This document shows, one piece after another, positions 6,738 to 31,751 of a stretch of 39,874 bases of DNA. Source of the stretch: Deltaproteobacteria bacterium (lineage in GTDB: Bacteria > Desulfobacterota > Dissulfuribacteria > Dissulfuribacterales > UBA3076); the NCBI GenBank assembly GCA_021159445.1, contig JAGGRV010000431.1:1-39874 (forward strand), in the 5' to 3' direction. The notes beneath the pieces were generated by a model that did no database searches, was not told the DNA's origin, and saw nothing but the letters and a program-made list of their open reading frames with translations. The position numbers and the translations under genes were made by a program. Every line of letters begins with the position of its first letter. Positions within the stretch are counted from its first letter, which is position 1.

Positions 6738-6760
6738 TATCCAGTGACTTCTTAATTTGA

Positions 6761-10312: not shown

Positions 10313-10315
10313 GTT

Positions 10316-10484: not shown

Positions 10485-10555
10485 ATTAAACAGTCAAATC
10501 GTCTCTTCTGTTTCCCAAAATTGCAAACCGATCAAAAATAGGGGAGGGACACCTG

Positions 10556-11411: not shown

Positions 11412-11499
11412 AATTTATTTACTGATTCTCGTAGCCAGGACAGGCGGCATGCCAATGCCCGCAACAGGGGTTCACGTGGGGTCCGGGAGGTTTCGATAG

Positions 11500-11832: not shown

Positions 11833-11835
11833 CCC

Positions 11836-12911: not shown

Positions 12912-12914
12912 GAT

Positions 12915-16287: not shown

Positions 16288-16290
16288 GTC

Positions 16291-16431
16291 ATGACAGACG
16301 AGAGAACAGACGAAATAGAAGGCAAGATGGAACTTGGCCATGAACCTGTTCCGCCTTTTCGGACCATTTTTTGGGTAGCTATTACAATAGGTGTTTTGTA
16401 TCTGGGACTCATCTTTTTCAAGACACTTTGA
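16291..16431 (+). CDS. Candidate 46-aa single-TM peptide in the mrp operon
   Basis: It is not in the ORF track because it is under 60 aa. The ATG lies 3 nt after the preceding stop and 8 nt after GGAG. The product is MTDERTDEIEGKMELGHEPVPPFRTIFWVAITIGVLYLGLIFFKTL. Confidence 0.4.
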   Translation: MTDERTDEIEGKMELGHEPVPPFRTIFWVAITIGVLYLGLIFFKTL

Positions 16432-16483
16432 ATAAGATCGTCAGTGGTGCCGTGTTTGTTGCTCAGGCTATGGAAGGATTGTT

Positions 16484-16744
16484 ATGAAACCAGAGAACAG
16501 CGAAGACAAAAAATATTTTTTTGATAAACCTGCAAGCATGAAGATACTGGCATGGTCTTTTTTGTTATCGCTCGTTCTTCTTCTTGCCCTGGAGTTCTTT
16601 ATTCACAAGCACACTTATTTCCCCTCGGAAGAATGGCCTGAATTTTATTGTGTATTTGCCTTTGTCGGCTTTGTGGCACTTGTTCTTTCCGCAAAATATA
16701 TCCTGCGGCCCCTTGTGAAGAGACGAGAGGATTACTATGACTGA
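16484..16744 (+). CDS. Small two-TM membrane protein in the mrp operon
   Basis: 86-aa ORF with a GGAAGG RBS. Its stop overlaps the next gene's start by 8 nt. Confidence 0.55.
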   Translation: MKPENSEDKKYFFDKPASMKILAWSFLLSLVLLLALEFFIHKHTYFPSEEWPEFYCVFAFVGFVALVLSAKYILRPLVKRREDYYD

Positions 16745-18512
16745 AGTCCTGCCGCCAGCGGCCATTTTTATCATCGGAGGACTACTGGTTCCTCTGATAA
16801 AAGGGAAATGGAAAAGCGCCTACATGTTGCTCATCCCGGTGGTAGGTTTCATAAACCTGATCAATATCCCTGAAGGAACTCATTGGGTTGTAGAGTTTAT
16901 GGAATATGATCTTATCTTTGGTAAAGTGGACAGGCTGAGCCTCCTGTTCGGTTACATCTTCCATCTCATATCTTTCATAGCTATTCTCTATGCCATTCAC
17001 GTAAAAGACGATGTGCAGAATGTGGCCGGGCTGGTTTACGCCGGCAGTGCCCTGGGGGTTGTCTTTGCCGGAGACCTTTTTTCTTTCTTTGTCTTCTGGG
17101 AAATGCTCACTGTAGCTTCCATATTTCTTATCTGGGCCCGCAGGACAAAGGCAGCTCAAGGCGCAGGATACAGATATCTTCTTGTTCATGCAGCCGGAGG
17201 CCTGTGCCTTCTGGCAGGCATCGTCCTGTATGTGAATCAGACAGGCTCTATTGAGTTCGGGTATATCGGACTTAATGGACTTGCCACCTTATTAATTTTC
17301 CTGGGTTTTGGCCTGAATTGCGCATGGCCTCTTCTTCATCCATGGCTGACCGACGCCTATCCGGAGGCCACAATTACCGGAACCGTATTCCTGAGCGCTT
17401 TTACTACAAAATGTGCGGTCTACGCCCTGGCCAGGGCCTTTCCGGGCACCGAGGCCCTTATCTGGATCGGAGCGATTATGACCGCGTTCCCTATCTTCTA
17501 TGCGGTCATTGAAAATAACCTCAGGCGGGTGCTGTCCTATAGCTTGATCAACCAGGTGGGATTCATGGTATGCGGAATCGGCATTGGGACACAAATGGCC
17601 ATAAACGGCGCTGTTTCCCACGCCGTGAACGATATCCTCTTCAAGGCCCTGCTGTTCATGTCCATGGGCGCAGTGATGTATCGTAATAACAATAAAATCA
17701 ACTGCACTGCCCTGGGTGGACTGTACCGGACCATGCCGCTCACCTGTATCTGTTGTATAATAGGGGCTGCATCCATCTCGGCCGTTCCGCTTTTCAGCGG
17801 TTTTGTCAGCAAGTCAATGGTCATGAGTGCGGCTGCTGACGGTCATATGCAGATCATATGGTTCATCCTTCTGTTTGCCTCAGTCGGTGTATTAGAGCAT
17901 GCTGGTATCAAAATTCCGTTTTTTGCGTTCTTTGGACATGATTCCAGGCTGAGACCCAAGGAGGCACCCCTCCACATGCTTCTTGCCATGGGCATCGCAG
18001 CGTTCTTCTGCATCTTCAACGGGTCATTTCCCAGCTACCTGTATAGCCTGCTCCCATATCCGGTTGAGTATGTACCATACACGGTTCCGCATGTGGTAGG
18101 TCAGACCCAGCTCATTTTCTTTGCCGCCCTTGCCTTCATACTTCTCACGCTTTCCGGCATGTCTCCCGCCGAGATGAGGGCTGTCAATGTTGATGCTGAT
18201 TGGTTCTACCGCAAAGGTAGCGGTCTTTTTTACCGGGTCATGGATATTAGTATGAACGGATTGACCAGGGTCGCTGACAGGGTCATTGTGGGTGAGTTGA
18301 CCGGATCTATCTGCCGCATATCCCAACGCTGGCCTGAGGTCCTCTGCCTTGGGATTATGATTCCCTTGTGGAGTATCACCGGTGTAAAGGGAAAAGAACT
18401 CGAGGGCAAGATCGAAAGAACTCGAGTGGCCCTGCAAACACACACCTCACCCATAGGGATCAGTGCGGCTATAGCTACCATTTTTTTGGTGTTAATTTAC
18501 CTGTTAATGTGA
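16737..18512 (+). CDS. MrpA/NuoL-like antiporter subunit lacking the MrpA C-terminal (MbhD/MrpB-like) domain
   Basis: 591-aa polytopic ORF of the PF00361 type (WPLLHPWLTDAYPEAT, GAVSHAVNDILFKALLFM), with a C-terminal extension of about 150 aa. Confidence 0.85.
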   Translation: MTEVLPPAAIFIIGGLLVPLIKGKWKSAYMLLIPVVGFINLINIPEGTHWVVEFMEYDLIFGKVDRLSLLFGYIFHLISFIAILYAIHVKDDVQNVAGLVYAGSALGVVFAGDLFSFFVFWEMLTVASIFLIWARRTKAAQGAGYRYLLVHAAGGLCLLAGIVLYVNQTGSIEFGYIGLNGLATLLIFLGFGLNCAWPLLHPWLTDAYPEATITGTVFLSAFTTKCAVYALARAFPGTEALIWIGAIMTAFPIFYAVIENNLRRVLSYSLINQVGFMVCGIGIGTQMAINGAVSHAVNDILFKALLFMSMGAVMYRNNNKINCTALGGLYRTMPLTCICCIIGAASISAVPLFSGFVSKSMVMSAAADGHMQIIWFILLFASVGVLEHAGIKIPFFAFFGHDSRLRPKEAPLHMLLAMGIAAFFCIFNGSFPSYLYSLLPYPVEYVPYTVPHVVGQTQLIFFAALAFILLTLSGMSPAEMRAVNVDADWFYRKGSGLFYRVMDISMNGLTRVADRVIVGELTGSICRISQRWPEVLCLGIMIPLWSITGVKGKELEGKIERTRVALQTHTSPIGISAAIATIFLVLIYLLM

Positions 18513-18536
18513 TATAAATATAAAAAAATCGTAATA

Positions 18537-18638
18537 GTTCACCGCAGAGTGCACAGAGAGCGCAAAGAGAAGATAAATAGAAAAAATTCTTTACTCTGCG
18601 GTCTCCGCGTTCTCTGTGGTAAATAGAATTGGGTGAAC
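18537..18638. repeat. Hairpin-type element with CNCAGAG-word arms after the mrp operon
   Basis: The left arm is caCCGCAGAGtgCACAGAGagCGCAAAGAG and the right arm is CTCTGCGGtCTCCGCGttCTCTGTGG. accgcagagt pairs perfectly with actctgcggt, cacagagagcgc pairs 11/12 with gcgttctctgtg, and the outer pair is gttcacc with ggtgaac. It may act as a terminator. Confidence 0.6.
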
Positions 18639-19169
18639 TGTTACAAAACCATCAAAGATGCGGGCACGGAGAGGAGAAACGGATATTTGGCTTCTATAGA
18701 ACAACTCAAAAGAATTCGACTCTTTGAAGATTTGACCGACGGCATGTTGGAACAGTTGCTTCCCCTGGCTCAAGAGCAATCGTTTGCGGAAAGGGAGATT
18801 ATTTTCGAACCAGGTAGTGAGGCCACCTACTTTTACTCACTGACCACAGGCAAGGTGTTACTCCAGGCAGAGCTTGCCTCAGCCCTTATTATTTCCCTCG
18901 GGGCCATTAAGCCGGGGTACTCGTTCGGCTGGTCTGCCCTTCTCCCCGGACCCGCCCACACTTCCCTTGCTGTTTGTATGGAACCATGCGAAATCCTGGT
19001 CATGCCCGGAGACAAATTTAAGGCCCTTCTTGATCAAGATCACACCATGGGATTCCTGGTTATGCAAAAGACTGCCACGATCCTTGAGAACCGTTTGGAA
19101 CGTCGTTCAGCACAGTTTGTCAAGGTAATAACCAAACACCCCGATATAGCAACGCTCTTGGGTTTGTAG
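18633..19169 (+). CDS. Stand-alone cyclic-nucleotide-binding domain protein (no HTH)
   Basis: The cNMP-binding fold pattern is RLFEDLTDGMLEQL...FEPGSEATYFYSLTTGKV...GYSFGWSALL. The GTG at 18633 lies inside the hairpin element. TTG 18687, which follows GAGGAG, is a plausible alternative start. Confidence 0.78.
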   Translation: MNCYKTIKDAGTERRNGYLASIEQLKRIRLFEDLTDGMLEQLLPLAQEQSFAEREIIFEPGSEATYFYSLTTGKVLLQAELASALIISLGAIKPGYSFGWSALLPGPAHTSLAVCMEPCEILVMPGDKFKALLDQDHTMGFLVMQKTATILENRLERRSAQFVKVITKHPDIATLLGL

Positions 19170-19177
19170 AAGGGGGC

Positions 19178-20704
19178 TTAGCCTTCATGTGAGTGCGGCT
19201 CAAAAGGCAGCCTGATGACAAAAGTTGACCCTTTTCCAGGTTCAGAGTCTACTTTTATGGTTCCGCCATGCTCGTGGACTGTTTTCCGGGTAATCAGCAG
19301 GCCGAGGCCCGTACCTCTTGACCCCTTGGTGCTGAATAGAGAGCTAAAGATCTGCTTTCTTACGGCCTCATCCATACCACAACCATTGTCAGAGACCTGA
19401 AGAGTAAACGCTCCATCACTTTCGCGCCTTGTGGTCACCCGCACCAGGTGTTCCTTGCCCTCGTTTTCATCAAATATAGCGGCATCAATGGCATTGGAAA
19501 CCAGGTTAAGCAGACAGCGATGAATTCCTTTGGGGTCTAAAGATGCATCGCCTATGGTTGGATCAAGATCTATGACAATCTCTACTCCGGATTCTTTTGC
19601 CTTGAGATCCATTAGGTTGCATACCTCTTCCGCAATTGAATTCGGGGAGCACTTTTCATATTCAGGCTCACGTTCCTTGGAATAGTTGAGGAGATCCATA
19701 GCCAAGCCGGAGATCCTGTCAATATTCCTTTGCACCATGTCCCAGCCGGTACGAAGTCTATGCATATCCTCTTTCTTAAGTGCGTTGTCTACTATATAGA
19801 CTCCTCCCTTAAGACCACCTAAGATGTTTTTGATACCGTGGGCAAGTCCGGCCACAGTTTCTCCAGTGGCAGCCAACCTTTCGGACTTGATCAATTCCTG
19901 CTGTAGCTGCTTGATCTCCCTCAGATCGTGGAGGAAACCCACACTGCCGATGACCTCACCATCTTGATACAGAACAGTTCCTGAAAACTTAACCGGTATC
20001 TTGTCACCGTCCTTTCCCAAAACAAAGGTCTCTCGCCAAACATGCATTTCTTGTCTTTCTGGTTCTTTGCCATGCAGACCTTGCATGATTTCTTCGGCTG
20101 TCTCTGGTGGATAGAGACTCTTTATATCAATCTTCCCTATTACCTCATCCTTGGAATATCCAAATATTCTCTCATCCCCTCGATTAAAGATCATTATTTT
20201 TCCCTGCTTATCAGTGCCGACTATACCGTCGATGGAACGCTGAATCAGATTGTCTTCAAACTCGTACCTCTGTCTTATTTCTTCCGTGGCTTGCTTAACC
20301 TTATCTTCCAAATTATCGGTATATTCCTTGAGCATCCTCCTTAAATGAAGCCTTTCCTCTGCCCGTTTTAAGGCAACCGCCAGGGCTTCGTCCACAATAG
20401 GCTTGGTGACAAAATCAGAGGCCTCAAGTTGCAGAGATTGGATAGCCACGTCCATATCGCCATGCCCGGTAACAACTATCACCTCGGTTTCAGGGCTTAT
20501 TTCCTTAATCTTTTTCAATACCTCGATGCCATCCATGCCGGGCATCTTTATATCAGTTAAGACAATTGGGGGGGCTTCTTTCTCAAATAACTCAAGGCCG
20601 CTTTTGCCGTCCTCTGCGGTCAGCACCTCGTAGCCATCAGCTCTCAGCGACATTCCCACAATTTTTCTTGCCGGCTCTTCATCATCAATAAGTAACAGCT
20701 TCAA
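19178..20704 (-). CDS. Hybrid REC-PAS-histidine kinase
   Basis: 508-aa ORF with a TTG start. An N-terminal receiver (LLIDDEE, LTDIKMPGMDG, VVTGHG) is followed by a PAS region, the H-box GLAHGIKN and the ATPase boxes NAIDA, DNGCGM and GTGLGL. Confidence 0.88.
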   Translation of the reverse strand: MKLLLIDDEEPARKIVGMSLRADGYEVLTAEDGKSGLELFEKEAPPIVLTDIKMPGMDGIEVLKKIKEISPETEVIVVTGHGDMDVAIQSLQLEASDFVTKPIVDEALAVALKRAEERLHLRRMLKEYTDNLEDKVKQATEEIRQRYEFEDNLIQRSIDGIVGTDKQGKIMIFNRGDERIFGYSKDEVIGKIDIKSLYPPETAEEIMQGLHGKEPERQEMHVWRETFVLGKDGDKIPVKFSGTVLYQDGEVIGSVGFLHDLREIKQLQQELIKSERLAATGETVAGLAHGIKNILGGLKGGVYIVDNALKKEDMHRLRTGWDMVQRNIDRISGLAMDLLNYSKEREPEYEKCSPNSIAEEVCNLMDLKAKESGVEIVIDLDPTIGDASLDPKGIHRCLLNLVSNAIDAAIFDENEGKEHLVRVTTRRESDGAFTLQVSDNGCGMDEAVRKQIFSSLFSTKGSRGTGLGLLITRKTVHEHGGTIKVDSEPGKGSTFVIRLPFEPHSHEG

Positions 20705-20741
20705 TATATTGCCCCACTGTTAGAATGTTATTTAAGCGTTT

Positions 20742-20902
20742 GCGGAACGTTGAAATTAGAAATTAGAAATTTGGCCTTCATGCTATCGTACCAGACCATA
20801 TCTGATAACTCTTCTGCCGGTTTGTAAACATCCAAATCGTAAGCTCGTTTCATCTCCTGCAAATTTCTACTTTCCAATTTCAAGTTTCAAGCCGTGAACG
20901 GC
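20742..20902. repeat. R1 element, copy a (161 nt; GAAATT-word arms plus a GCCGTGAACGGC hairpin)
   Basis: It is an inverted copy of 23878-23985. The outer roughly 45 nt and 60 nt align almost perfectly, and copy a carries about 50 extra central nt. Confidence 0.85.
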
Positions 20903-20908
20903 TACCCA

Positions 20909-22606
20909 TTATTTAGCATCTGAACATGGAGGAAATTTCAACAGAAATGTTGTACCAGTCCCTACCTCAGTCTTTACCTCTATAGTTCCACCATAATCCT
21001 TGACAATTCCATAGCTGATGGACAGACCTAATCCCGTTCCCACACCCACTTTTTTGGTGGTAAAGAATGGTTCAAATATTTTATCCAATACATTTTCGGG
21101 AATACCGTTTCCCGTATCGGATACAGAAATTGCAACCCGTCCTCTGTCTGAAAATGACTTAATTGTTACCTTACCACCTGGTTCGCCTTTTTCCTCAATG
21201 GCTTGCCGGGCATTGACAACCAGGTTTAAAAGGACCTGCTCCAACTTATTACTATCTGCCATTATATGGGGCGGGTTATCATCCAGGTCCAAATCTATCT
21301 CTATATCACGCACCTTGAACTGTTGTCCCAATATCCCAATAATATTTCTGATAGGCACATTCACATCAAGCTCTGTTGTTTTGACACCGATCCTTGAAAA
21401 ATCCCGCATATGATTGATGATTGCCGCTGCCCTGTCTACCTGACCAACAATTTGTTCAGTCACAGTTCTTAATTCTTCATCCTTAATCTTTTTGCCCTTG
21501 TCGATCATCTTTGACAGAAACGTAGCGCCCATTCTAATAACACTTAACGGTTGATTTAACTCGTGGGCTACGCCTGATGCCATCTCACCCAAGGTGGACA
21601 TCTTGCTGGCCTGAACTAACTGGGTCCTTTTTTCTAATTTCTTTATCTCTTTTTCAGAAATATCCAGTTTGGAGACCATATGTTTAAAGGAATCCGCCAA
21701 CTGGACCATCTCGTCACCCACATGGGTTTTATATACTTTGCATTCACGACACTCGTCCAGTTTTTCTGGAAAGCTCCCTGATGGCTGGCCGAAACAGAGT
21801 GTTCCGTCCACGTACCAGCACATTGTCGAAGTATTTCCATATGCAGGGCAGTCGGTTTTTGTGCATTTTTCTATCTCCCAGCATTTGACCTCTCTACCAA
21901 AATCAACCTCTGTTTTCCCACGGCTGATTTCATCGGCTAATCGCGCAAGTTGGGCAAGGGGCCGGGTAACGAATCTGGATAAGAAAATGAATAAGAAGAC
22001 ACCCACAATTACAAGGGAAGCCAGGCCCCAGACAATCTCTCTATTCCTGACTTCTGCTACTCGCTTCTCTACGGGGCCCCAGCTGATTCCTACGGTTAGG
22101 ATCCCCAATATTTCATTTTCACTTCCATGGCATTTATAACAGGTTTCCTCATTCGGGATAGGCATGGCATGGAGAAGTATCTTTTCTCCTTCCTGCACCT
22201 CTAGGTCCTTCGCCAGGGAACCGGTGCGTAATGCCTCTTCAGTGGCATGTGAATCGTCAAGCATTTTTATATTGGCTGGTAATCCACTGTATTTGATGCT
22301 GCCTGTAAGATCGCAAAGATTTACTACTCTCACGTCTGTTAATTTATACAAGCTTTCCAAGATGGCCTGTACGGCCTCCATGTCTCCGTCGAGCATAGGG
22401 TACTCAATACTTCTTAATACCGTGTCACTGATCTCATATGCCCGCTCCTCCTGCTTTCCAAAGTGATACTTAATTCGCATTACCATATCGTAGTAAGTAA
22501 GGAGGCCTATTACTACGATTAAGATCACGCCCATACCCATTATTACCTTGTCTCTTACGCTGGATATGCGTAATTTTGACCATAATCTGTCCAAAAGAGG
22601 TGTCAT
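20909..22606 (-). CDS. Sensor histidine kinase with a periplasmic CXXCH (haem c) domain and a 7-Cys module inserted in its HAMP domain
   Basis: 565-aa ORF. Order of elements: TM1, a roughly 150-aa periplasmic domain with CYKCH, TM2, HAMP helix 1 (RPLAQLARLADEISRG), a 48-aa Cys-rich insert, HAMP helix 2 (DEMVQLADSFKHMVSKL), H-box GVAHELNQPL, and ATPase boxes NARQA, DTGNGI and GTGLGLSIS. Confidence 0.88.
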   Translation of the reverse strand: MTPLLDRLWSKLRISSVRDKVIMGMGVILIVVIGLLTYYDMVMRIKYHFGKQEERAYEISDTVLRSIEYPMLDGDMEAVQAILESLYKLTDVRVVNLCDLTGSIKYSGLPANIKMLDDSHATEEALRTGSLAKDLEVQEGEKILLHAMPIPNEETCYKCHGSENEILGILTVGISWGPVEKRVAEVRNREIVWGLASLVIVGVFLFIFLSRFVTRPLAQLARLADEISRGKTEVDFGREVKCWEIEKCTKTDCPAYGNTSTMCWYVDGTLCFGQPSGSFPEKLDECRECKVYKTHVGDEMVQLADSFKHMVSKLDISEKEIKKLEKRTQLVQASKMSTLGEMASGVAHELNQPLSVIRMGATFLSKMIDKGKKIKDEELRTVTEQIVGQVDRAAAIINHMRDFSRIGVKTTELDVNVPIRNIIGILGQQFKVRDIEIDLDLDDNPPHIMADSNKLEQVLLNLVVNARQAIEEKGEPGGKVTIKSFSDRGRVAISVSDTGNGIPENVLDKIFEPFFTTKKVGVGTGLGLSISYGIVKDYGGTIEVKTEVGTGTTFLLKFPPCSDAK

Positions 22607-22665
22607 TTTACCTGTCCCTCAATTCCCCATACGCTCATACTGATGATGGCATGTAGTGCAGCGGC

Positions 22666-23106
22666 TCAATATCCCGGATGCTTGTGCCCGCTGTGACAGC
22701 TTGTACATATATTCTTTGGAATGCTCAATGTCTCTTGATGTTCCAGCCTGGTCGGAGCCTTGAGATGTAAGCTGGCCGGACCATGGCAACTTTCACACTG
22801 TTTATTGACCATCCTTGGGGTTTTTTCCACACTGACAAATCCTCCCTTTTTCCCAAAGCCGGTCGTATGGCAAGGCAGACAGTCTGGGTCATGATCTCTT
22901 TTTCTCATCTGTATGACCCGAAAATTCCTTGAGTATTTCCAGGAGAGATAGCTTTCCACATGCCCTGCGTGGCATTCTTTGCACTTGTCCATTCCAACAT
23001 AGGTGGCCTTCTCTTTTTCAGCCTGAAGATACGGTGTGTTAAAGGCAAACAAATATAAAGCAACAAGCCCGGTGGTCATGGTGATAAATAGTTTTTTCAT
23101 TTTCAT
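22666..23106 (-). CDS. Periplasmic tetrahaem c-type cytochrome (cytochrome c554-like multihaem family)
   Basis: Four CXXCH motifs are present (CKECH, CLPCH, CESCH, CTSCH) with a signal-peptide-like N-terminus MKMKKLFITMTTGLVALYLFA. ATG 23106, 7 nt after AAGGAG, is preferred to the ORF-track GTG 23133. Confidence 0.88.
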   Translation of the reverse strand: MKMKKLFITMTTGLVALYLFAFNTPYLQAEKEKATYVGMDKCKECHAGHVESYLSWKYSRNFRVIQMRKRDHDPDCLPCHTTGFGKKGGFVSVEKTPRMVNKQCESCHGPASLHLKAPTRLEHQETLSIPKNICTSCHSGHKHPGY

Positions 23107-23443
23107 CTTCAAGCTCCTTTGGCCAGAATCCACGTCGAGGATCTGAAAACAAATAGCATTTTATCCTATCGTACGAAGCATGGAGAATAAAACGGTGCTG
23201 AACTGAATAGCGCTCCATGCTATTTTGCGAACTCTATGGATATTATATAGAAGCCTGGTCCTTGGATCAACCACACCTAAGAACTTTAATCATGTATTAT
23301 ATGGAAATCTTAAGGTGAAGTAAAAACCTGCATTATTGCCATTTTGTCTTTCAAAGCGCAGCATTCTGTGCTATGTATTTGTTCAGGTAAAGAGATAGGC
23401 TTGCCTAAGGGCTTTCTCAGTAATTATAGGAGTGAGGAAGGAA

Positions 23444-23878
23444 ATGGCTAAAAAGATACTTATCGTGGACGATGAGCCTGATATTATTACCTTTATCAGC
23501 GCAGTCCTTGAAGACAACGGTTATTCAAGCATAAGTGCCAACAATGGGATTGAGGGACTTGAACTCTTGCGCAAAGAGAAGCCTGATCTGGTTTTGCTCG
23601 ATCTTATGATGCCCAAAAAAAGTGGCATTGCCATGTTTCAAGAGTTAAGATCGGATCCGGACATGAGCAATACTCCCGTGATCGTGCAGACCGGGGTCTC
23701 TGAGGTGACAGGGGTCAATTTCAGGAACTTCATGTTCAAACAACCGCTTCGGGATGAAAAGAAATTTGTCGAGAGCACGGGATTAACAAAATATACTATT
23801 CCAGACGGCTATATTGAAAAACCAATTGATCCTGTTGAGTTGATTGAAGTAATTAAGAAAGCCTTAAAAGAAACATAG
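23444..23878 (+). CDS. CheY-like single-domain response regulator
   Basis: The 144-aa product begins MAKKILIVDDEPD and contains LVLLDLMMPKKSG and IEKP. ATG 23444 follows GGAAGGAA and is preferred to GTG 23432. Confidence 0.88.
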   Translation: MAKKILIVDDEPDIITFISAVLEDNGYSSISANNGIEGLELLRKEKPDLVLLDLMMPKKSGIAMFQELRSDPDMSNTPVIVQTGVSEVTGVNFRNFMFKQPLRDEKKFVESTGLTKYTIPDGYIEKPIDPVELIEVIKKALKET

Positions 23879-23985
23879 CCGTTCACGGCTTGAAACTTGA
23901 AATTGGAAAGTAGAAATTGGGGAGAGATGAAACGAGTCTACACAAAAGCATGAAGGCCAAATTTCTAACTTCAACGTTCCGTGCG
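23878..23985. repeat. R1 element, copy b (108 nt)
   Basis: It starts on the last base of the RR stop codon. Its reverse complement matches 20742-20902 apart from a central deletion. Confidence 0.85.
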
Positions 23986-24036
23986 TGAATTCCCCTGCTC
24001 TATACAAATCGACAAAACCGGCTTCTTGAATAATAG

Positions 24037-24065
24037 ATTGAGACGACCTCAGAGGTCGTCTCAAT
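24037..24065. terminator. Bidirectional intrinsic terminator between the convergent RR and cytochrome b genes
   Basis: A perfect 13-bp stem attgagacgacct / aggtcgtctcaat has a 3-nt loop. T-rich sequence follows on both strands. Confidence 0.65.
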
Positions 24066-24082
24066 CCTTATTGATTTGTTGG

Positions 24083-24715
24083 TTAGTGATCTTCTACCTC
24101 TTCCTCCCAACCGGTTATCATCGTTATGATATGAGCCCAGAAGGTATGGCCCAGGGTAGCCAGATACATGTGGACAAAGAGGAAGGCAGCGAAACAGCAG
24201 GCTACCAGAAAATGTAACCCAATCACTATTTTTACCCCACCCAAAAACACCATCCATTTTTGCGTAATCAGCAGAAGCAGCAGGCCGGACAACAGGACGA
24301 TCGGTACAAGCATCGTCATGATCATCAGATATGCCCCTTTCTGCATGGGGTTGAATTTGGCATCAGGCGTGGAGTGGTGAGGGTTCGGTCCACCTTTGAA
24401 GTAGTTGAAGCCATAGAACACCATCTGTTTTATGATTCCCGTCTTCAGGTCATACATGTTGGGGACATAGAGCTTTATCAGGCTCTTATCAATAAACACG
24501 TAATATACAAACCATAACAACCAATCGATGCACACGAAAATTCCGGTAAAATCATGAACCAGTACCGCTGCTCTATAGCTGCCGAAGAAATTAATATACT
24601 CAGGAAACCTGATCTGAGCTCCTGTAATGCACAGAGTTGTTATTCCAATGGCGTGGATCCAATGCCATATCCTCACTGTAAGAGGATTGAGGTAGATCAT
24701 TTTTGGTTTTTCCAT
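24083..24715 (-). CDS. Dihaem b-type cytochrome, HydC/FdnI (Ni/Fe-hydrogenase cytochrome b) family
   Basis: 210 aa from ATG 24715, with four TM helices. Four conserved His lie in VRIWHWIHA, VLVHDF, IGLHFL and FVHMYL. The ATG is 2 nt after the stop of the upstream cytochrome c gene. Confidence 0.86.
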   Translation of the reverse strand: MEKPKMIYLNPLTVRIWHWIHAIGITTLCITGAQIRFPEYINFFGSYRAAVLVHDFTGIFVCIDWLLWFVYYVFIDKSLIKLYVPNMYDLKTGIIKQMVFYGFNYFKGGPNPHHSTPDAKFNPMQKGAYLMIMTMLVPIVLLSGLLLLLITQKWMVFLGGVKIVIGLHFLVACCFAAFLFVHMYLATLGHTFWAHIITMITGWEEEVEDH

Positions 24716-24717
24716 GA

Positions 24718-25884
24718 TCAATGTTTCCTCCTGTTTTTTTGAGTCAGAATTCTGAAAGTGCCATGGAGGCAGGCCGCGCCTAAACCACCGGCTATGATCA
24801 GCAGGCCCAAAATGCTGAGAATATCGTTTCTGGTGGAGCCCACCATGTAGAAGTCAGCAGTAGCAAAAAGAGGGTCAAGCACTGCCCCCTCTTCAACAGC
24901 GACCCTGCTGTATGTGCCATCTTGATTAGGGAAGGCTACGTAACATGTCTGCATGGCTTTGGGCCCGGCAGCGTGACAGAAAGAACAATCCCGGCGGTCT
25001 TCAAATATTCCATAACTGTGACTTGCTGTCTTTGTTGACAGCATCCCCCAGAGCCCTACACTCTTATATTTTGAGTTCATATTAAACTCTTTGAGTTCCG
25101 CCGTTGTAATGGAGCCGTCACCATTGGTATCTATGAGAGATTGAACTCCCTTGTCTCCGACTAATTGCGTGAGATCCTGGTAAGTTGCGAGGTCAATCTC
25201 ACCTTCTTTATCTGGTTTGATATCCTCTCTTTTCTCAATATACATGGTGATGACGATGCCTTTTGAATCGGTATGGCAGCTTATGCACGTAGTTGCCTGC
25301 ATGTGGAGCTTGTTCCGGAGGAGCCATTCAGAGTGGCCGGCACCTTCGTGACAATTAATACACTGTTTATTTTTTTCAAAACCTGAGGTCTCCAGGTAGC
25401 TTATTGCTGTATGGGGGCTGTGACAATCCGAGCAAACCGCATTTCCTGCATGGGGACTATTTAAATACTCTTCAACGGCCTCTTCATGGCACATACCACA
25501 ACTTTCACCAGGAGACTTGAGACCTTTGGCCGCATGGGGGTCGTGACAATCTGTGCATTCCGCATTTCCCGCATGAAGGCCCTTTGATAACTCATCAATA
25601 GTATCTTCATGGCACATGTCACAGCTTTCTTTTTCGGGCATGACACCGTCGTCCGGGTGATCATCGGTTACGTAATGGCAGGACACGCAACCATCTTCTG
25701 CGTGTTTTGTGCCGGCGAACTGGGTACCATCGATATATAAATATTCACCAACAATGGATGAATCGCCATGGCATTCCAGACAGTCATCGGTTTCCATGGC
25801 ACTCGACGAGCTGATGCCAATGCCAGCCACCAACATCATGAAACCGAAAATACAGATTATGAGAAACTTTGCTTTGAGCACCAT
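24718..25884 (-). CDS. Membrane-anchored nonahaem c-type cytochrome
   Basis: Nine CXXCH motifs were counted: CLECH, CVSCH, CDMCH, CTDCH, CGMCH, CSDCH, CINCH, CISCH and CSFCH. An N-terminal signal and a C-terminal TM (ILSILGLLIIAGGLGAACL) are present. ATG 25884 is preferred to the ORF-track GTG 25902. Confidence 0.88.
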   Translation of the reverse strand: MVLKAKFLIICIFGFMMLVAGIGISSSSAMETDDCLECHGDSSIVGEYLYIDGTQFAGTKHAEDGCVSCHYVTDDHPDDGVMPEKESCDMCHEDTIDELSKGLHAGNAECTDCHDPHAAKGLKSPGESCGMCHEEAVEEYLNSPHAGNAVCSDCHSPHTAISYLETSGFEKNKQCINCHEGAGHSEWLLRNKLHMQATTCISCHTDSKGIVITMYIEKREDIKPDKEGEIDLATYQDLTQLVGDKGVQSLIDTNGDGSITTAELKEFNMNSKYKSVGLWGMLSTKTASHSYGIFEDRRDCSFCHAAGPKAMQTCYVAFPNQDGTYSRVAVEEGAVLDPLFATADFYMVGSTRNDILSILGLLIIAGGLGAACLHGTFRILTQKNRRKH

Positions 25885-25951
25885 CCTTCCTCTCTTCCTC
25901 ACCTATAGAACTTAGAAGTTCATGTGCGAGCATACTCCAATGTCCCTTGCT

Positions 25952-26110
25952 AAGGAACGTACAATAAATAACTTGAACAAATTAACGTCTTTTTTGCCGT
26001 CTTCTTCGTTGCTCGTCGATCACATAACCCGTTATGCTCGCTCCTCGCGCCTTGAATACAACAAAAAATCCTGTTAATTTTTGTTCAACTTATTTATCTC
26101 CCGTTCCTAA
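25952..26110. repeat. R2 palindromic element, copy a (159 nt, about 45-nt imperfect terminal inverted arms)
   Basis: The arm aggaacgtacaataaataacttgaacaaattaac faces gttaatttttgttcaacttatttatctcccgttcct. Positions 26009-26110 equal the reverse complement of 39774-39874 with 1 mismatch. Confidence 0.85.
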
Positions 26111-26698
26111 AACAAAACTTTCGCACAGGACTTGCAGTAGCTATGCACCCACGATAAGGGCGCAGATCCCAAAAAAAAGTTTAGATATAGACACCGCTTT
26201 TGTCGTTTCCGATATTATAGATCACCGGAGCTAAAAAAGCGGTAGTTAAAAGAAAAACCAATGCAAGAATTATTTTTTTGTGTTCTTTTAATGGCACGCC
26301 CCTCCTTCCTGTTTTGTTATTTATTTTAAAATGATTTCTATTACACCTATGTGAAATTGTAATATTGTTATTTTAAAATTACTTTGTAACCTGCCTGGAA
26401 GAAATTGGCAATATCAGTCTGACCACCCAGGCAAATCTTTTTTGTTTTTTTATAGAGCGTGAGATCAAATCATAAGTGAGATTCCGCATAATCTCAATCG
26501 ATTCTGTCTTATGTCTAGAGCATATTCCTGTGCTTGACAAGCCCAAATGGCCCTGCTACTACAAAAACAGGTGTTAGTATTATATATAGATAGCGGCCGC
26601 TGAATAATATTGCTATGGTTTTTTCTGGAAAACGCATGACTATCAACGGCTTCGCATGAGGTTCCTTTGATTAAAGAGGCCATTAAGGTTGGGGTACA

Positions 26699-27175
26699 AT
26701 GAGATACTTCCTTACCATTGTCACAGCAATAATAACGATCATTATCTTTTTTAATCCGGAAGAGGTTAAAGGTGGAAATAACACTGAAACACAAAAATAT
26801 GTCGGTTCAGAAGCCTGCGAGGCCTGTCACCAAAAAGAATATAGTAGTTTCATCAAATATGCAAAGAAGAGCATTTCGTTCGAGAGCATTCAAAGGGTAA
26901 AAAAGGGCCTTGCCGAGGAAGAAATCCATAAGTGCTATTTTTGCCATACAACAGGATATGGTAAACCGGGCGGCTTTGTCAGTCCTGAGGAGACCCCTCA
27001 CTTGAAGAACGCAGGCTGTGAAGTATGCCATGGCCCGGGTGAACTACATGTCAGGACGCAGCGCGTTCAGGATATCAAGATGAATCTCACAATGAAAGAT
27101 TGTGAGGAGTGTCATATTTCAGAGAGGGTCAAGGCCTTCAGGTACAAGCCCTTGATTCACGGAGGCGCGCATTAG
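26699..27175 (+). CDS. Periplasmic tetrahaem c-type cytochrome, paralogue of 22666-23106
   Basis: Four CXXCH motifs are present (CEACH, CYFCH, CEVCH, CEECH). It shares CHTTGYGKPGGF and CEVCHGPGELH blocks with the other tetrahaem protein. Confidence 0.88.
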   Translation: MRYFLTIVTAIITIIIFFNPEEVKGGNNTETQKYVGSEACEACHQKEYSSFIKYAKKSISFESIQRVKKGLAEEEIHKCYFCHTTGYGKPGGFVSPEETPHLKNAGCEVCHGPGELHVRTQRVQDIKMNLTMKDCEECHISERVKAFRYKPLIHGGAH

Positions 27176-27182
27176 CGGCTCC

Positions 27183-27342
27183 GTAAGCGTTCACAGGGCA
27201 CCGCATCTGCTTTGTTGTCGGGCACTTGAAGTACAGGGAGTACGTCTGCGTACCCTCCGCCTCGCATCTGCAGCACCCTGTAAACGCTTACAGTTCTGTG
27301 GGTTGCGATAAAGCGGGGCGTTGTAATCCCGTGAACGGTTAC
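27183..27342. repeat. Three copies of a GT(A/G)A-N4-T(T/C)AC near-palindrome in the cytochrome-kinase intergenic region
   Basis: The copies are GTAAGCGTTCAC (27183-27194), GTAAACGCTTAC (27280-27291) and GTGAACGGTTAC (27331-27342). Extended 16-nt segments pair 15/16 (27183-27198 with 27276-27291). Confidence 0.5.
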
Positions 27343-27377
27343 GCGGCTCCAATGGGTGCCGCATTGTTGAGGACAGG

Positions 27378-30071
27378 ATGTTTGGTTTTATAAGAAAGAG
27401 TTTTGCAAACAAGATAATGGCTACTGTAATAATCAGTATAGCCCTGGTTATGGCGGCTGAAATTGTCTTGAGAATATACTTCGGGACCAAAGACAGGATG
27501 GAGTTGGTAAGAACTCTTAATTTAGACGTGTCCGGATCGATCCATTCCGGCATAACATATCCAATGCATGTTGGAGATAATAAGGCTATCGAGGGAGTCT
27601 TGTCTGATGTCCGTAAAAGGATGGGAAACATCGAGGCATGGATATGCGATTTTGATCAAGTGATAACCTGGTCCACACACGAGGAAAGGGTAAAGACCAG
27701 GGTTGCAGATTCCATTCATGATAAGGAGGCATTGAAGGCCTTAAGCAAGACGTTGAGCTCAGGAGTAACACAAGAAAAAGCATTTTTAGAAGAACTTGCT
27801 GGAAGAAAGGTCCTTATTACCATCCAGCCCATTCTGAATCAAGAAGACTGCTATCACTGCCATGGCTCTTCAAGGAAAGTTCTCGGTGGCTTGATAATAG
27901 GAACTGACGTGAAGCATGCTTACATGACGGTCGTTGCTGCCAGGAACAGGACTATAGTGATGAGTTTTATTGGAATATCGATTATCATTGCCTTAATTTA
28001 TGTGATGGTGACCAGATTCATCAGGCGTCCTGTGGAGGATTTGGCTGACAAGGCAAAGAGGTTTGCAGAAGGCGATACGTCTGTTTCGGTAGACATAAAG
28101 TCAGAGGATGAAATAGGCGTATTAGGCAACGCATTTAACTATATGGTTCAAAGGGCATCTCAATTCAGCAAAAGACTTGAAAGTGAGGTCGCCAGAAAAA
28201 CCGACCTGTTAGGCGAAAGGACCAATCTTATAGCACTATTGGAAAAAGCAAATACACAACTCAGGGAGCTTGACAAACTAAAATCTACGTTCTTGGCGAA
28301 TATGTCTCATGAGCTAAGGACACCGATGAATTCTATTATCGGATATTCAGATTTGCTAATAGACGGGGTTGACGGACCAATTAACGAGGAACAGGAAAAG
28401 AGTCTGGGCAGAATTTCCAATAATGCCAGGCACCTCTTGCAATTGTTAAATGATCTTCTCGATCTCTCCAAGATAGAAGCAGGGAAAACTGAGATAGAAG
28501 CAGAACAATTCAACCTCAAAGGGCTCATTGATTCAGTAATTCCCGTGTTTGAGGGAATGATAACCCAAAAGGGTCTTTCCCTTGATTTTGATATCGATGA
28601 GAATCTGCCTTTAGTCTATGGCGATAAGAATAAAATCAAGCATGTTTTAATGAACCTGCTGTCCAATGCGATCAAGTTTACCGATGAGGGAGGCATAACC
28701 ATCCGTGCCAGGACATCCGGTCGCGGTATTCAACCTGGCGAGTCTCCCATATTTGCAGAGGTCTGTGTAGAGGATACAGGCATCGGGATAAAGGATGAGG
28801 ACCTCGGTAAGATTTTTGACAAGTTCGTGCAGGCTGACCTTTCTACCGTCCGCCAATATGACGGGACCGGCCTGGGTCTCAGTATTGCGAGAGGGTTGAT
28901 TGCATTGCACAATGGTATGATCTGGGCCACGAGCAAGTATGGCAAGGGAAGTCAATTCTATTTCACTATTCCGCTCAAACAAGAGACACTTGAATCTTCA
29001 GCTAAGCCGGTCATAGAATTACGAGTGGCTGACGACCTGGCTGAGCACTTCGGGGTGCCTGTTGAGACCTTTCTGAAAGACCCCGAATATGAAGGCAACC
29101 CGGTAAGGTGTCACGACTACATCCATTGTGGACAGCCAAGCTGTCCGGCCTATGACAGTGAAGATAAACGTTGCTGGCTCATTCTTGGGACACATTGCTC
29201 AGGACTGAAAGTCGGTGCCTATCCGGAAAAGGTTAATTTTTGCAAGAATTGTGAGGTTATACAGAAACTGGTGCTTGAGTCACAGAAGTCAAAAATCGTT
29301 GGGTCAGAGCTATCGACCGAAGAAGGCATTACGAAAAAGACGGTCTTGGCAATAGATGACAATCCGGATGCCATTGATATTATCAGGAAATCTCTGGGAG
29401 AGGACTACAAAATAGTAGGTCTTCTCAGTGGGAAAAGGGCAGTTGAAAAGGCCATAGAGACCAGACCTGTAGCCATTACTCTGGATATAATGATGCCGAA
29501 AAAGGATGGATGGCAAGTACTGCGGGAGCTGAAGAGTACGCCAGAGACCCGGGATATCCCGGTAATTGTCCTTTCAATTGTGGATAATAAAAAACTGGGA
29601 TTCAGTCTGGGTGCTGCGGAATATATGGTAAAGCCGCTAGATAAGAATTTTCTGCTCAGAAAAATAAGAGATCTGGAAAAAACGGGTAAGATACAACGGG
29701 CACTTGTAGTAGATAGTGATACAGATACAGTATCGCTGATCGAACATGCCCTGCAAGACGTTGGGTGTGAGGTAAAGACAGCTTACAATAGCCAGGATGC
29801 AGTTAAGTTGATAAAGAGTTTCATGCCCCATCTGATCATCCTCAATCTGACAATGCCCAAGGTAAATGGTTTTGATGTAATCGAGTATATAAAAACAGAA
29901 AAAAGTGCCAAGAAGATCCCTCTTATTCTTATTACTAAGAGGGAGTTGAGTGAGAAAGAGAAAGACGCTCTAAACGGTAGGTTACGTGGTATATTAAACA
30001 AGATGGTACTTAAAGAAGAAGATCTCTCACAAGAACTCAAAGATAGAATTGATGAGATAAAGAGTGCCTGA
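27378..30071 (+). CDS. Hybrid sensor histidine kinase: periplasmic CXXCH domain, HAMP, HisKA, HATPase, 7-Cys module and two receiver domains
   Basis: 897-aa ORF. CYHCH lies at aa 158-162 between two TM helices. The HAMP is intact (RRPVEDLADKAKRFAEGD..DEIGVLGNAFNYM) and the H-box is MSHELRTPMNSI. ATPase boxes are NAIKFT, DTGIGI and GTGLGLSIA. The Cys-rich block spans aa 578-625. The two REC domains contain LAIDDNPD..LDIMMPKKDG and LVVDSDTD..LNLTMPKVNG. Confidence 0.9.
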   Translation: MFGFIRKSFANKIMATVIISIALVMAAEIVLRIYFGTKDRMELVRTLNLDVSGSIHSGITYPMHVGDNKAIEGVLSDVRKRMGNIEAWICDFDQVITWSTHEERVKTRVADSIHDKEALKALSKTLSSGVTQEKAFLEELAGRKVLITIQPILNQEDCYHCHGSSRKVLGGLIIGTDVKHAYMTVVAARNRTIVMSFIGISIIIALIYVMVTRFIRRPVEDLADKAKRFAEGDTSVSVDIKSEDEIGVLGNAFNYMVQRASQFSKRLESEVARKTDLLGERTNLIALLEKANTQLRELDKLKSTFLANMSHELRTPMNSIIGYSDLLIDGVDGPINEEQEKSLGRISNNARHLLQLLNDLLDLSKIEAGKTEIEAEQFNLKGLIDSVIPVFEGMITQKGLSLDFDIDENLPLVYGDKNKIKHVLMNLLSNAIKFTDEGGITIRARTSGRGIQPGESPIFAEVCVEDTGIGIKDEDLGKIFDKFVQADLSTVRQYDGTGLGLSIARGLIALHNGMIWATSKYGKGSQFYFTIPLKQETLESSAKPVIELRVADDLAEHFGVPVETFLKDPEYEGNPVRCHDYIHCGQPSCPAYDSEDKRCWLILGTHCSGLKVGAYPEKVNFCKNCEVIQKLVLESQKSKIVGSELSTEEGITKKTVLAIDDNPDAIDIIRKSLGEDYKIVGLLSGKRAVEKAIETRPVAITLDIMMPKKDGWQVLRELKSTPETRDIPVIVLSIVDNKKLGFSLGAAEYMVKPLDKNFLLRKIRDLEKTGKIQRALVVDSDTDTVSLIEHALQDVGCEVKTAYNSQDAVKLIKSFMPHLIILNLTMPKVNGFDVIEYIKTEKSAKKIPLILITKRELSEKEKDALNGRLRGILNKMVLKEEDLSQELKDRIDEIKSA

Positions 30072-30085: not shown

Positions 30086-30481
30086 ATGAAAGAAACAGGG
30101 AAGGTTTCCGGGAAAAAATTGCTGATAATTGATGACAACCAGGATAGCCGGGAGCTGGTAATTAAGATTTTAAGAAACCGGGATTATCAGATAATTGAAG
30201 CCGTTGATGGAGAAGATGGCCTGGAAAAGGCGAATGCTGAACAGCCGGATATTATTCTTTTGGATATCTCACTTCCGAAAATGGGGGGTTATGATGTCGC
30301 GAAAAACCTGAGGCTTCGAGAGGAGTTTAAGCATACCACGATAATTGCACTGACCGCACATGCAATGAAAGGAGATGAGGAAAAGGCTTTGCAGGCTGGA
30401 TTCAGTGGATATATTTCAAAACCGATAAATGTCCGCGAGCTGCCGGGGCAGATAGAGAAATATGTGGAAGGGGGAAGGTAG
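30086..30481 (+). CDS. Single-domain response regulator
   Basis: 131-aa ORF with LLIIDDNQD, ILLDISLPKMGG, LTAHAMKGD and SKP. Confidence 0.88.
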   Translation: MKETGKVSGKKLLIIDDNQDSRELVIKILRNRDYQIIEAVDGEDGLEKANAEQPDIILLDISLPKMGGYDVAKNLRLREEFKHTTIIALTAHAMKGDEEKALQAGFSGYISKPINVRELPGQIEKYVEGGR

Positions 30482-30533: not shown

Positions 30534-31607
30534 GTGGACAAAACCAAGATCCTGATTGTAGAGGATAATATCGATACAGTAGACCTATTGAGGAAGAGGC
30601 TCCGCGCTGATGGATACGATACCGCTGAGGCATACGACGGCGAAGAAGGCCTTGAAAAATTCGCTGAATACGAGCCGGATCTGGTTGTGCTGGACATTAT
30701 GATGCCTAAAATGGATGGGTTTGAGGTATGCAAGAGACTCAAGGAAGATGAAAGCACCCGCTACATACCAGTCATTATCCTAACTGCCAAGGGCGACGTT
30801 GACAGCACTGTCAAGGGTCTCGATATCGGCGGGGATGATTATCTGGCTAAACCCTTTGATTATAAAGAGCTTGTTGCAAGAATACGGTCATTGCTCAGCA
30901 TTAAAGAAGAGCGCAAGAAGTTGATGGAGGCGGAGAAGACAGAAGCATTAGAAAAAATGATGGATCAAGTGGCGCATGAGATTAGGAACCCTCTTGTTGC
31001 TATAGGAGGGTTTGCGCGAAGGATCTGTGAATCCCTTTCTGAGAATGATCCAAACAGAAAATATTTGAAATTAATTGTACAAAATGTTGAGACCCTGGAA
31101 CATATGATAAAAAAGCTCATTGAGCTGAAAACCACTGTAATATCTTATAGAGAGCCGGCGGATATTAATGAGATTATTGCCGAAGCGATCGAAAAATGCA
31201 GACCTGCACTTGAAGAAAATCACATAGATATCAAAACCGAATTAATAAAAAATCTTCCTGATATTTCTGTTGATAGAGAACAGATTAAGGCGGTATTTGC
31301 CAATCTTATTGAAAATGCAATTGAAGCAATGAGAAATGAGACACGCATACTGAAAATTGGCAGCCGTGTCAGCGAGGGATATATTGAAATCAAGGTATCC
31401 GATACAGGGGTCGGTATCCCAAAAGACAAACTCAAGCATGTTCTGGACCCTTTTTTTACCTCAAAGATCCACGCAGGGCTCGGTCTTACCTATGCACTCA
31501 AGATCATTCAGGCCCACAGGGGCACGATCTCAGTGGAAAGCGAACTAGGCAAGGGATCCACCTTTACGATTAGATTACCTGTGAAGAGACACGGCAGCAG
31601 CCATTAA
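30534..31607 (+). CDS. Hybrid REC-histidine kinase
   Basis: 357-aa ORF with a GTG start. The receiver contains ILIVEDN and VVLDIMMPKMDG. The H-box is QVAHEIRNPL and the ATPase boxes are NAIEA, DTGVGI and GLGLTYA. Confidence 0.85.
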   Translation: MDKTKILIVEDNIDTVDLLRKRLRADGYDTAEAYDGEEGLEKFAEYEPDLVVLDIMMPKMDGFEVCKRLKEDESTRYIPVIILTAKGDVDSTVKGLDIGGDDYLAKPFDYKELVARIRSLLSIKEERKKLMEAEKTEALEKMMDQVAHEIRNPLVAIGGFARRICESLSENDPNRKYLKLIVQNVETLEHMIKKLIELKTTVISYREPADINEIIAEAIEKCRPALEENHIDIKTELIKNLPDISVDREQIKAVFANLIENAIEAMRNETRILKIGSRVSEGYIEIKVSDTGVGIPKDKLKHVLDPFFTSKIHAGLGLTYALKIIQAHRGTISVESELGKGSTFTIRLPVKRHGSSH

Positions 31608-31665: not shown

Positions 31666-31751
31666 TGGTGCCGAAGGGGGGATTCGAACCCCCATGGGTT
31701 TTGCCCACCACCCCCTCAAGATGGCGTGTCTACCTATTCCACCACTTCGGC
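31666..31751 (-). tRNA. tRNA-Leu (anticodon GAG), class II with long variable arm, encoded CCA
   Basis: I folded the reverse complement GCCGAAGTGGTGGAATAGGTAGACACGCCATCTTGAGGGGGTGGTGGGCAAAACCCATGGGGGTTCGAATCCCCCCTTCGGCACCA by hand. The fold has a 7-bp acceptor stem, a 3-bp D stem, anticodon stem CCAUC/GGUGG with loop UUGAGGG, variable arm GGG-CAAAA-CCC, and T arm GGGGG-UUCGAAU-CCCCC. Confidence 0.9.

Follow-up and report, generated by a model that had tools for sequence, protein, structure and literature searches.

Tetrahaem cytochromes paired with haem-sensor kinases around a CbcBA-type locus: a candidate periplasmic redox-sensing cassette in Desulfobacterota and Nitrospirota

The question of how periplasmic redox state is sensed by anaerobes dependent on extracellular or interspecies electron transfer is raised by a contig from a Deltaproteobacteria bacterium (JAGGRV010000431.1, assembly GCA_021159445.1), all 39,874 nt of which are the window referred to below, with positions counted on its forward strand. 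Here a gene pair for a nonahaem cytochrome c and a cytochrome b, of the type named CbcBA, is bracketed by two modules, each with a gene for a small tetrahaem cytochrome (C1 or C2) followed by one for a histidine kinase (HK) whose periplasmic sensor domain has a single c-type haem motif (K1 or K2). Why should cytochrome and kinase keep such company, and twice over? The pairing is not a matter of chance: it is a near-obligate and subfamily-specific synteny, and most of what follows is concerned with the evidence for that and with what the cytochrome may be doing there.

The initial annotation of the region, made from the letters alone, described two paralogous modules in opposite orientation, and every open reading frame (ORF) was found where it had been placed (Table 1), with the 59 nt between C1 and K1 as given there. 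Also recovered were the four CXXCH motifs of each cytochrome together with all the sequence blocks said to be shared, which are seen in the pairwise alignments, the one CXXCH of each kinase between two transmembrane (TM) helices, a cytoplasmic module of seven cysteines in both kinases, the receiver (REC) gene and nonahaem cytochrome c/cytochrome b pair lying between the modules, and the three further REC-containing proteins that flank them.

The pairing of cytochrome and kinase in other genomes

A genome scan with an alignment of the C2 family gave more than 561 matches, and the best 80 loci of these (loci are cited by L number where need be), about half from Desulfobacterota and half from Nitrospirota/Thermodesulfovibrionia, made up the C2-type set. 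Four are uninformative, the sequence ending at most 371 nt past the cytochrome gene. In 74 of the 76 informative loci a gene for a haem-sensor kinase is directly adjacent, downstream and on the same strand, which upholds the earlier proposal that cytochrome and CXXCH kinase form a dedicated pair. The two exceptions are L064, with room for a sensor but none present, and L027, with its sensor 5.6 kb off. Downstream of the kinase the usual order is a single REC protein (56-92% identical to its counterpart in the window, in both phyla), then a REC-HisKA-HATPase protein (51-94% identical to its counterpart), with one more kinase (about 540 aa) in some Nitrospirota, and under strict filters the complete four-gene cassette is present at 45 loci. 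First place in the cassette invariably belongs to the cytochrome gene, and the neighbouring genes otherwise vary. When the look-up was reversed, with the sensor domain as the starting point, a c554-type cytochrome was directly upstream in three of three kinases.

For C1-type cytochromes outside the Seep-SRB2 clade (the clade to which the window is closest), the sensor is adjacent in 12 of 12 cases, i.e. nine of nine metagenome loci, those with at least 700 nt of downstream DNA being counted, and three of three look-ups, one of the latter being Candidatus Desulfofervidus. As a specificity control, the same metagenome scan provided 56 more distant c554-family cytochromes (below 45% identity to C1, and with enough downstream DNA), and not one has a sensor as neighbour. 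Since a C1-type cytochrome is in every case paired with a K1-type sensor (45-63% identical to K1, 22-30% to K2), cytochrome and sensor were duplicated as a unit and have diverged together. A different duplication is that in Deltaproteobacteria bacterium RIFOXYD12_FULL_57_12 (L050), where two cytochrome and haem-sensor-kinase modules stand in tandem on one strand (2106-5252 and 6618-8842); it is an independent event in another lineage.

The adjacency could in principle have been fortuitous, an effect of assembly, or a recent inverted duplication without meaning, and one related contig, L001, seemed to lend this some support by carrying a split K1 gene. The split or truncated gene was considered as a pseudogene and rejected, its appearance being caused by a 100-N scaffold gap (5344-5443), one edge of which is duplicated over 55 nt. 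Independent assemblies and metagenome-assembled genomes (MAGs) show the same layout, and the paralogues are 29-38% identical, each with an orthologue family of its own. Together with the C2-type synteny, the type-specific pairing and the control just mentioned, this refutes the explanation by chance or artefact, and its remaining probability is vanishingly small. The modules had also been called 'mirror-duplicated'. Of that description the paralogy stands and a recent local inverted duplication does not: as the low levels of identity and the separate orthologue families show, the modules are old paralogues that have come to stand on either side of cbcBA.

Candidate 'Rosetta-stone' fusions of cytochrome with kinase were rejected as overlapping stop-to-stop ORFs in different frames. 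The initial annotation knew of no characterised system with this pairing, and a search of the literature for the cytochrome-kinase pairing, for the four-gene cassette and for its association with the two-CW domain (see below) likewise found no description. The individual domains are all known or named; the pairing and the cassette, apparently undescribed, would be a variant of accessory-protein-assisted haem-based two-component sensing.

The partners: haem sensors, cysteine modules and tetrahaem cytochromes

K1 and K2 are 26% identical across 567 columns of a pairwise alignment (E = 2e-39), with TM helices at residues 21-39 and 191-209 of K1 and at 13-31 and 193-211 of K2. In K1 the order is TM helix, haem-c sensor, TM helix, a HAMP domain split by a two-CW insertion, HisKA and HATPase; in K2, a hybrid kinase, it is TM helix, haem-c sensor of sCache/PAS type, TM helix, HAMP, HisKA, HATPase, two-CW, REC and pseudo-REC. 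The sensor domains, about 29% identical to one another, both match PF21563 (Mcp40H-20_sensor) above its gathering score of 27, K1 with 36.6 bits and K2 as given in Table 1; the family was renamed sCache_haem in a 2026 preprint (PMC12889525). The haem motif is CYKCH at residues 156-160 of K1 and CYHCH at residues 158-162 of K2 (nt 27849-27863). Among PDB sequences both sensors match only 3B42 (GSU0935) and 3B47 (GSU0582), with E of about 1e-3. Met71 of K1 aligns with chain position 26 of 3B42, which is Met60 by the offset from Cys140, Cys143 and His144, and Met63 of K2 is the equivalent of the same GSU0935 residue and is the predicted distal ligand of the haem. In a set of 77 sensors, 28-80% identical to K2, all 77 have P62, M63, N154, C158, C161, H162 and G170 (K2 numbering) unchanged, and covalent binding of haem by the sensor domains is supported at the level of sequence. 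An AlphaFold2 (AF2) model of the K2 sensor has a predicted local distance difference test score (pLDDT) of 85, and the top Foldseek matches to it are the extracellular domain of WalK/YycG, 3B42, 3B47, CitA and DcuS; the modelled fold is that of an extracytoplasmic sCache/PAS-like domain flanked by TM helices.

GSU0582 and GSU0935 had been mentioned in the initial annotation merely as examples of periplasmic haem sensors. The relation holds and goes beyond analogy, as all four proteins belong to the same family. Like K1 and K2, the two have a single CXXCH and the aligned distal Met60, in a periplasmic domain that lies between two TM helices and is followed by HAMP. They undergo a redox-linked spin switch in which Met60 binds the haem when it is reduced and leaves when it is oxidised, and with midpoint potentials (Em) of -156 and -251 mV the paralogues have been proposed to serve different potential windows (PMC8396549), as may be the case for K1 and K2 also. 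However, GSU0582 and GSU0935 are chemoreceptors (methyl-accepting chemotaxis proteins) rather than histidine kinases with a two-CW cysteine domain, and in the literature examined a dedicated adjacent cytochrome partner, such as K1 and K2 have, is undescribed for them. Haem-c sensor kinases as such had already been predicted in Geobacter and Anaeromyxobacter.

The seven-cysteine module is the two-CW domain of NCBIfam (NF045718), a family with seven conserved Cys and two C-W pairs, and K1 clears its cutoff of 35 bits with a score of 43.2. The K2 segment, in which the first CW reads CH, is below that cutoff with 27.7 bits, yet it and the K1 segment are homologous, the Cys-rich segments being 37% identical in a separate alignment (E = 5e-13). 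Taken one by one, all seven Cys are kept in 79 of 80 relatives. The position of the domain differs, being within the HAMP connector in K1 and between HATPase and the first REC in K2. Replacement of the HAMP connector by a two-CW domain is seen also in kinases of two distant MAGs (L089 and L091), and the Desulfofervidus orthologue of K1 has a plain HAMP plus a PAS domain. A literature search for the two-CW domain found no paper, and the cassette gives this uncharacterised cysteine domain a defined context. Of the two receivers of K2-type kinases, the first has its Asp in 45 of 45 orthologues (from loci L007-L086). In the second (29703-30035) the phospho-acceptor Asp is replaced by Asn in 41 and by Ser in four of the 45, which makes it a conserved pseudo-receiver.

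On the cytochrome side, C1 and C2 are 38% identical (E = 5e-23 in a pairwise alignment) and both match PF13435, the c554 family, above its gathering score of 20.8, C1 with 48.7 and C2 with 66.7 bits. C2 matches Nitrosomonas europaea c554 (PDB 1BVB) with E = 2.6e-7, the second haem motif being aligned. The two kinds of protein are alike in being tetrahaem members of PF13435 (PDB 1BVB/1FT5 for c554) with N-terminal haem motifs that align, and in having C..CH followed by a G(F/Y)G.(K/P)GG(Y/F) block. In contrast to the 211 mature residues of N. europaea c554, C1 and C2 have about 130, and they differ also in lacking a link to hydroxylamine oxidation and in forming two subfamilies defined by their kinase neighbour. 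The C2 orthologues, in 80 genome loci from two phyla, are 53-90% identical, C2 being only 32-38% identical to C1; the C1 family is narrower, with about 100 homologue clusters, Candidatus Desulfofervidus auxilii among them. Beyond the four CXXCH, only three His are conserved (H117, H154 and H158 in C2; H114, H141 and H143 in C1). As there are four haems, it may be that one of them, like one in N. europaea c554, has no His as distal ligand and is five-coordinate. Both C1 and C2 also match the C-terminal ~120 residues of NCBIfam NF041198, 'UshA-like (seleno)protein' (E ~1e-21 to 1e-22), and the same tetrahaem module is therefore found in fusion with a UshA-like protein as well.

An electron as the possible input signal

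The reading preferred here, for which the chances are judged to fall just short of even, is that the modules are three-component redox sensors, in each of which the cytochrome serves as dedicated co-sensor of a redox-switched haem kinase. We infer all the electron-transfer and output steps of such a relay. The dedicated periplasmic c554-type tetrahaem cytochrome, C1 or C2, would equilibrate with the periplasmic electron pool and exchange electrons with the single c-haem in the sCache/PAS-like sensor of the kinase cognate to it (K1 or K2). Reduction would put the invariant Met on the haem and oxidation would free it, as in GSU0582 and GSU0935, and the conformational change of the sensor would reach the kinase core by way of TM2 and HAMP, with the two-CW Cys cluster perhaps supplying a second, cytoplasmic input of redox or metal kind. 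Output from K2 would go to its own REC, or to the single REC protein, and then to the REC-HK; output from K1 would go to the REC-PAS-HK, which is likely the second-tier kinase of module 1. The multi-kinase relay would end on regulators encoded elsewhere. The three-component reading is supported by the cytochrome being first in the operon, since that is the usual place of periplasmic co-sensors. It draws support also from the conserved synteny and its specificity control, from the co-divergence of cytochrome and sensor, from the PF21563 membership of the sensors with their invariant haem ligands, and from the published biophysics of GSU0582 and GSU0935.

Accessory proteins with haem are not without precedent. 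In the TorT/TorC-TorS system of E. coli, TorC is a haem accessory protein that acts on the TorS sensor. In HbpS-SenS-SenR of Streptomyces reticuli an extracytoplasmic haem accessory protein, whose gene is with or near that of the kinase, modulates the sensor, as is proposed here (PMC8396549). Neither HbpS-SenS nor the Tor system has a sequence relationship to the cassette, and the likeness is functional only. Unlike in those systems, both partners here carry c-type haem motifs and the accessory protein is a four-haem cytochrome, so that an electron, and not binding or degradation, could be the signal.

Several points weigh against the redox-sensor reading. The AF2 model of C2, made without haems, has a pLDDT of 53, too low for docking or a fold search. 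The cassette encodes no DNA-binding protein or transcription factor, and outside the Seep-SRB2 clade only L079 has cbcBA-like genes near the cassette, these being distant homologues about 7 kb downstream. Signalling-fused members of the haem-Cache family have been proposed as NO sensors, one such member binding NO selectively (PMC12889525), and GSU0582 and GSU0935 bind both NO and CO reversibly in vitro with displacement of Met60 (PMC8396549). In a mirror-tree/partial-Mantel analysis of 45 loci the partial r between cytochrome and sensor, with the cytoplasmic domains controlled for, is 0.16-0.18, with no excess over phylogeny; the cytochrome tracks the cytoplasmic domains better than it does the sensor, and the rate of evolution of the sensor domain is more than twice that of the cytochrome. 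Transient electron-transfer interfaces need not co-vary, so the mirror-tree result is not read as contrary.

Divergences that are not specially correlated, with a cytochrome far more conserved than the sensor, would also suit a quite different role for the cytochrome, that of an ordinary electron carrier co-transcribed with the two-component system, and perhaps autoregulated by it, i.e. a product and not a part of the sensor. Pertinent to this is that Murali et al. catalogue 'c554' cytochromes, which they find conserved in all syntrophic sulfate-reducing bacteria, as carriers of electrons in the periplasm (PMC10553843). However, adjacency and gene order are held across two phyla, the cytochrome stays first while its other neighbours change, and each of the duplicated cytochromes keeps strictly to its own type of sensor. 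In addition, other c554-family cytochromes are never found with a haem-sensor kinase as neighbour, and no respiratory enzyme is conserved beside the cassette. A mere carrier is, on this balance, distinctly improbable.

The binding of gases by relatives of the sensors brings in another kind of input, a small ligand (NO, CO or similar) that would displace the Met, with the cytochrome keeping the haem ferrous or else scavenging or reducing the ligand. The haem of the C1 and C2 subfamilies that is perhaps five-coordinate, as in N. europaea c554, fits such a function. c554 has reported NO-reductase activity, which counts on the same side. The NO sensor of the preprint, however, has a labile, water-type distal site where the K1/K2 subfamily keeps an invariant Met, and the hosts live as strict anaerobes in sulfidic or methane-seep habitats, in which the electron pool of the periplasm is central. 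Nor is it obvious why, in about 97% of loci, a ligand sensor would need a four-haem partner of its own. Gas sensing as the function of the cassette is considered unlikely.

The cbcBA setting, neighbouring features and significance

The closest genome matches to the window are MAGs of Seep-SRB2 (L008, FWG174_SeepSRB2, and L077, E20SeepSRB2). Seep-SRB2 is a sulfate-reducing partner of methane-oxidising archaea at methane seeps; its CbcBA is highly expressed during anaerobic oxidation of methane and has been proposed to be horizontally acquired and to link the electrons of direct interspecies electron transfer (DIET) to quinones (PMC10553843). Kinases or sensors are not mentioned in the main text of that paper. 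The central pair of the window matches the architecture published for Geobacter (10.1101/2021.04.15.440034), a PhsC-like four-TM dihaem cytochrome b with an anchored multihaem cytochrome c, and is thereby assigned as a CbcBA-type quinone:cytochrome c oxidoreductase. The CbcA-like protein has a signal peptide, TM helices at residues 13-31 and 361-379, and a His in the C-terminal one of these. Its gene overlaps by 4 nt with that of the cytochrome b, which matches NF011582 (thiosulfate reductase cytochrome b) with 99.5 bits, below the cutoff of that family, and is 89-97% identical in Seep-SRB2-clade loci. In that clade CbcBA is beside the cassette in L007-L015 (the cytochrome b in L007-L009, L011-L013 and L015), and the full mirror layout (K1<-C1, REC, cbcBA, C2->K2->REC->REC-HK) recurs in L008, L009, L011, L012 and L015. 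In Seep-SRB2, two cassettes bracketing cbcBA would plausibly tune the expression or use of the DIET-to-quinone link over two redox windows. The suggestion in the initial annotation that the electron-transfer state is sensed at two points and the intervening conduit controlled finds less support than the pairing itself: the cbcBA linkage is nearly limited to the Seep-SRB2 clade, and nothing in the cassette would bind DNA.

Table 1. Features of the window in and around the two cytochrome-kinase modules
Feature	Positions	Strand	Length, matches and remarks
REC-PAS-HK downstream of K1, same strand	19178-20704	-	Pfam domains
K1 histidine kinase	20909-22606	-	565 aa; ORF list
K1 two-CW insertion, aa ~241-293	21728-21886	-	NF045718; HAMP halves on either side
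C1 tetrahaem cytochrome	22666-23106	-	146 aa; alternative GTG start at 23133
Single REC protein, divergently transcribed from C1	23432-23878	+	148 aa; PF00072, 77 bits
Perfect 14-bp hairpin between convergent REC gene and cbcB	24036-24066		putative bidirectional terminator
CbcB-like dihaem cytochrome b, PhsC/Ni_hydr_CYTB type	24083-24721	-	212 aa; PF01292, 70.8 bits
CbcA-like nonahaem cytochrome c	24718-25902	-	394 aa; nine CXXCH; multihaem Pfam family matches
C2 tetrahaem cytochrome, first cassette gene	26699-27175	+	158 aa; N-terminal signal or anchor
MITE-like 160-bp insertion between C2 stop and K2 start	27183-27342		16-nt terminal inverted repeats
K2 hybrid histidine kinase	27378-30071	+	897 aa; Pfam domains, TM helices
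K2 periplasmic haem-c sensor domain, aa 35-195	27480-27962	+	PF21563, 36.0 bits
K2 two-CW domain, aa 578-625	29109-29252	+	NF045718, 27.7 bits, below cutoff; homology to K1
Single-domain response regulator, third cassette gene	30086-30481	+	PF00072
REC-HisKA-HATPase second-tier kinase, fourth cassette gene	30534-31607	+	Pfam domains

A comparison with Geobacter is instructive in this regard. There, cbcBA is induced as the potential falls, and the regulator BccR has been named, though not the sensor behind it (10.1101/2021.04.15.440034). As in the window, a redox-tracking CbcBA-type complex is encoded among two-component genes (GSU0593-0594, with BccR as GSU0598), and signal transducers with haem-c motifs, GSU0599 and GSU0591, are numbered near cbcBA (PMC8396549), just as haem-sensor kinases flank it here. 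The differences are that the Geobacter locus has a sigma54 regulator of REC-AAA-HTH type and a 7-haem CbcA, whereas here CbcA has nine haems and no gene of BccR type is adjacent, and that, unlike in Geobacter, each of the kinases flanking cbcBA here has a tetrahaem partner.

By analogy with Geobacter a sigma54 promoter was looked for upstream of cbcA, and no convincing -24/-12 site was found in 25903-26698. Elsewhere in the window, near-consensus sigma54 sites are present at 10469-10484 (+), TGGCACATCTATTGCT, directly upstream of an operon for a Mrp/Mnh-type antiporter (10556-18512), and at 6760-6775 (-), TGGCACATCGCTTGCT, and 6980-8092 (+) encodes a sigma54 activator that lacks a REC domain; the number of sigma54 sites in the window is not above chance. 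Upstream of cbcA there is a small ORF (26184-26297, -) for a 38-aa hydrophobic product, preceded by the ribosome-binding site GGAGG. Conserved to 82-90% in L007, L009, L011 and L013 and interrupted in L012 and L015, it recalls the small hypothetical genes of the Geobacter cbcBA operon (10.1101/2021.04.15.440034).

The single REC protein encoded between C1 and cbcBA has a divergent C-terminal half and a partial match to NF045717 (DVU0259/DivK family), with 100 bits against a cutoff of 160; a literature search for DVU0258/0259 found nothing. The hairpin between its gene and cbcB is likely a bidirectional terminator. Beyond the other end of the island a tRNA-Leu(GAG) gene (31666-31751, -) comes directly after the last cassette gene, and it is the sole match of an Rfam scan. 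Around module 1, a REC-PAS-HATPase or REC-HK protein is encoded beside the C1-type modules of L091 and L089. In the first of these, a Desulfobacterales MAG (1-10923), the C1-type module is next to both a REC-PAS-HATPase protein and a Mrp/Proton_antipo_M operon, as in the window at 10556-23106, a similarity that may point to conservation of a larger neighbourhood around module 1.

In module 2, the spacing of C2 and K2 is affected by an insertion resembling a miniature inverted-repeat transposable element (MITE), flanked by an 8-bp direct repeat, GCGGCTCC, at 27175-27182 and 27343-27350. The two genes are 202 nt apart in the window as against about 34 nt in relatives. The insertion is absent from the Seep-SRB2 relatives L008, L009, L012 and L015 and is present as a single copy in the window, and the RNA fold of the spacer is no more stable than that of shuffled sequences (z = -1.16). 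Co-transcription of the two genes may be influenced by the insertion.

A larger proposal can be built on the redox-sensor reading, and it is put forward as possible but rather doubtful: that the cassette, cytochrome with haem-kinase, REC and REC-kinase, is a widespread and undescribed class of signalling system with the electron itself as input, the tetrahaem cytochrome wiring the periplasmic or extracellular electron-transfer chain to the haem of the kinase and paralogous cassettes being tuned to different potentials. In Seep-SRB2 and Candidatus Desulfofervidus such sensors would be reading the electron supply from anaerobic methanotrophic archaea (ANME) and adjusting CbcBA-dependent uptake.

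With haem proteins of only some 15 kDa, the system lends itself to tests in vitro, and also to genetic ones in cultured organisms that carry it, such as Desulfoferrobacter suflitae DRH4 (L072) and Thermodesulfobacteriota strain B35 (L059). The findings suggest that, among the 'c554' cytochromes regarded by Murali et al. as generic periplasmic carriers, some at least may be components of signalling. The cassette of cytochrome and haem-kinase is a conserved candidate for a periplasmic redox sensor in the genomes of at least several hundred species of Desulfobacterota and Nitrospirota, and in the window it is duplicated around CbcBA, the complex seen by Murali et al. as central to DIET in Seep-SRB2.

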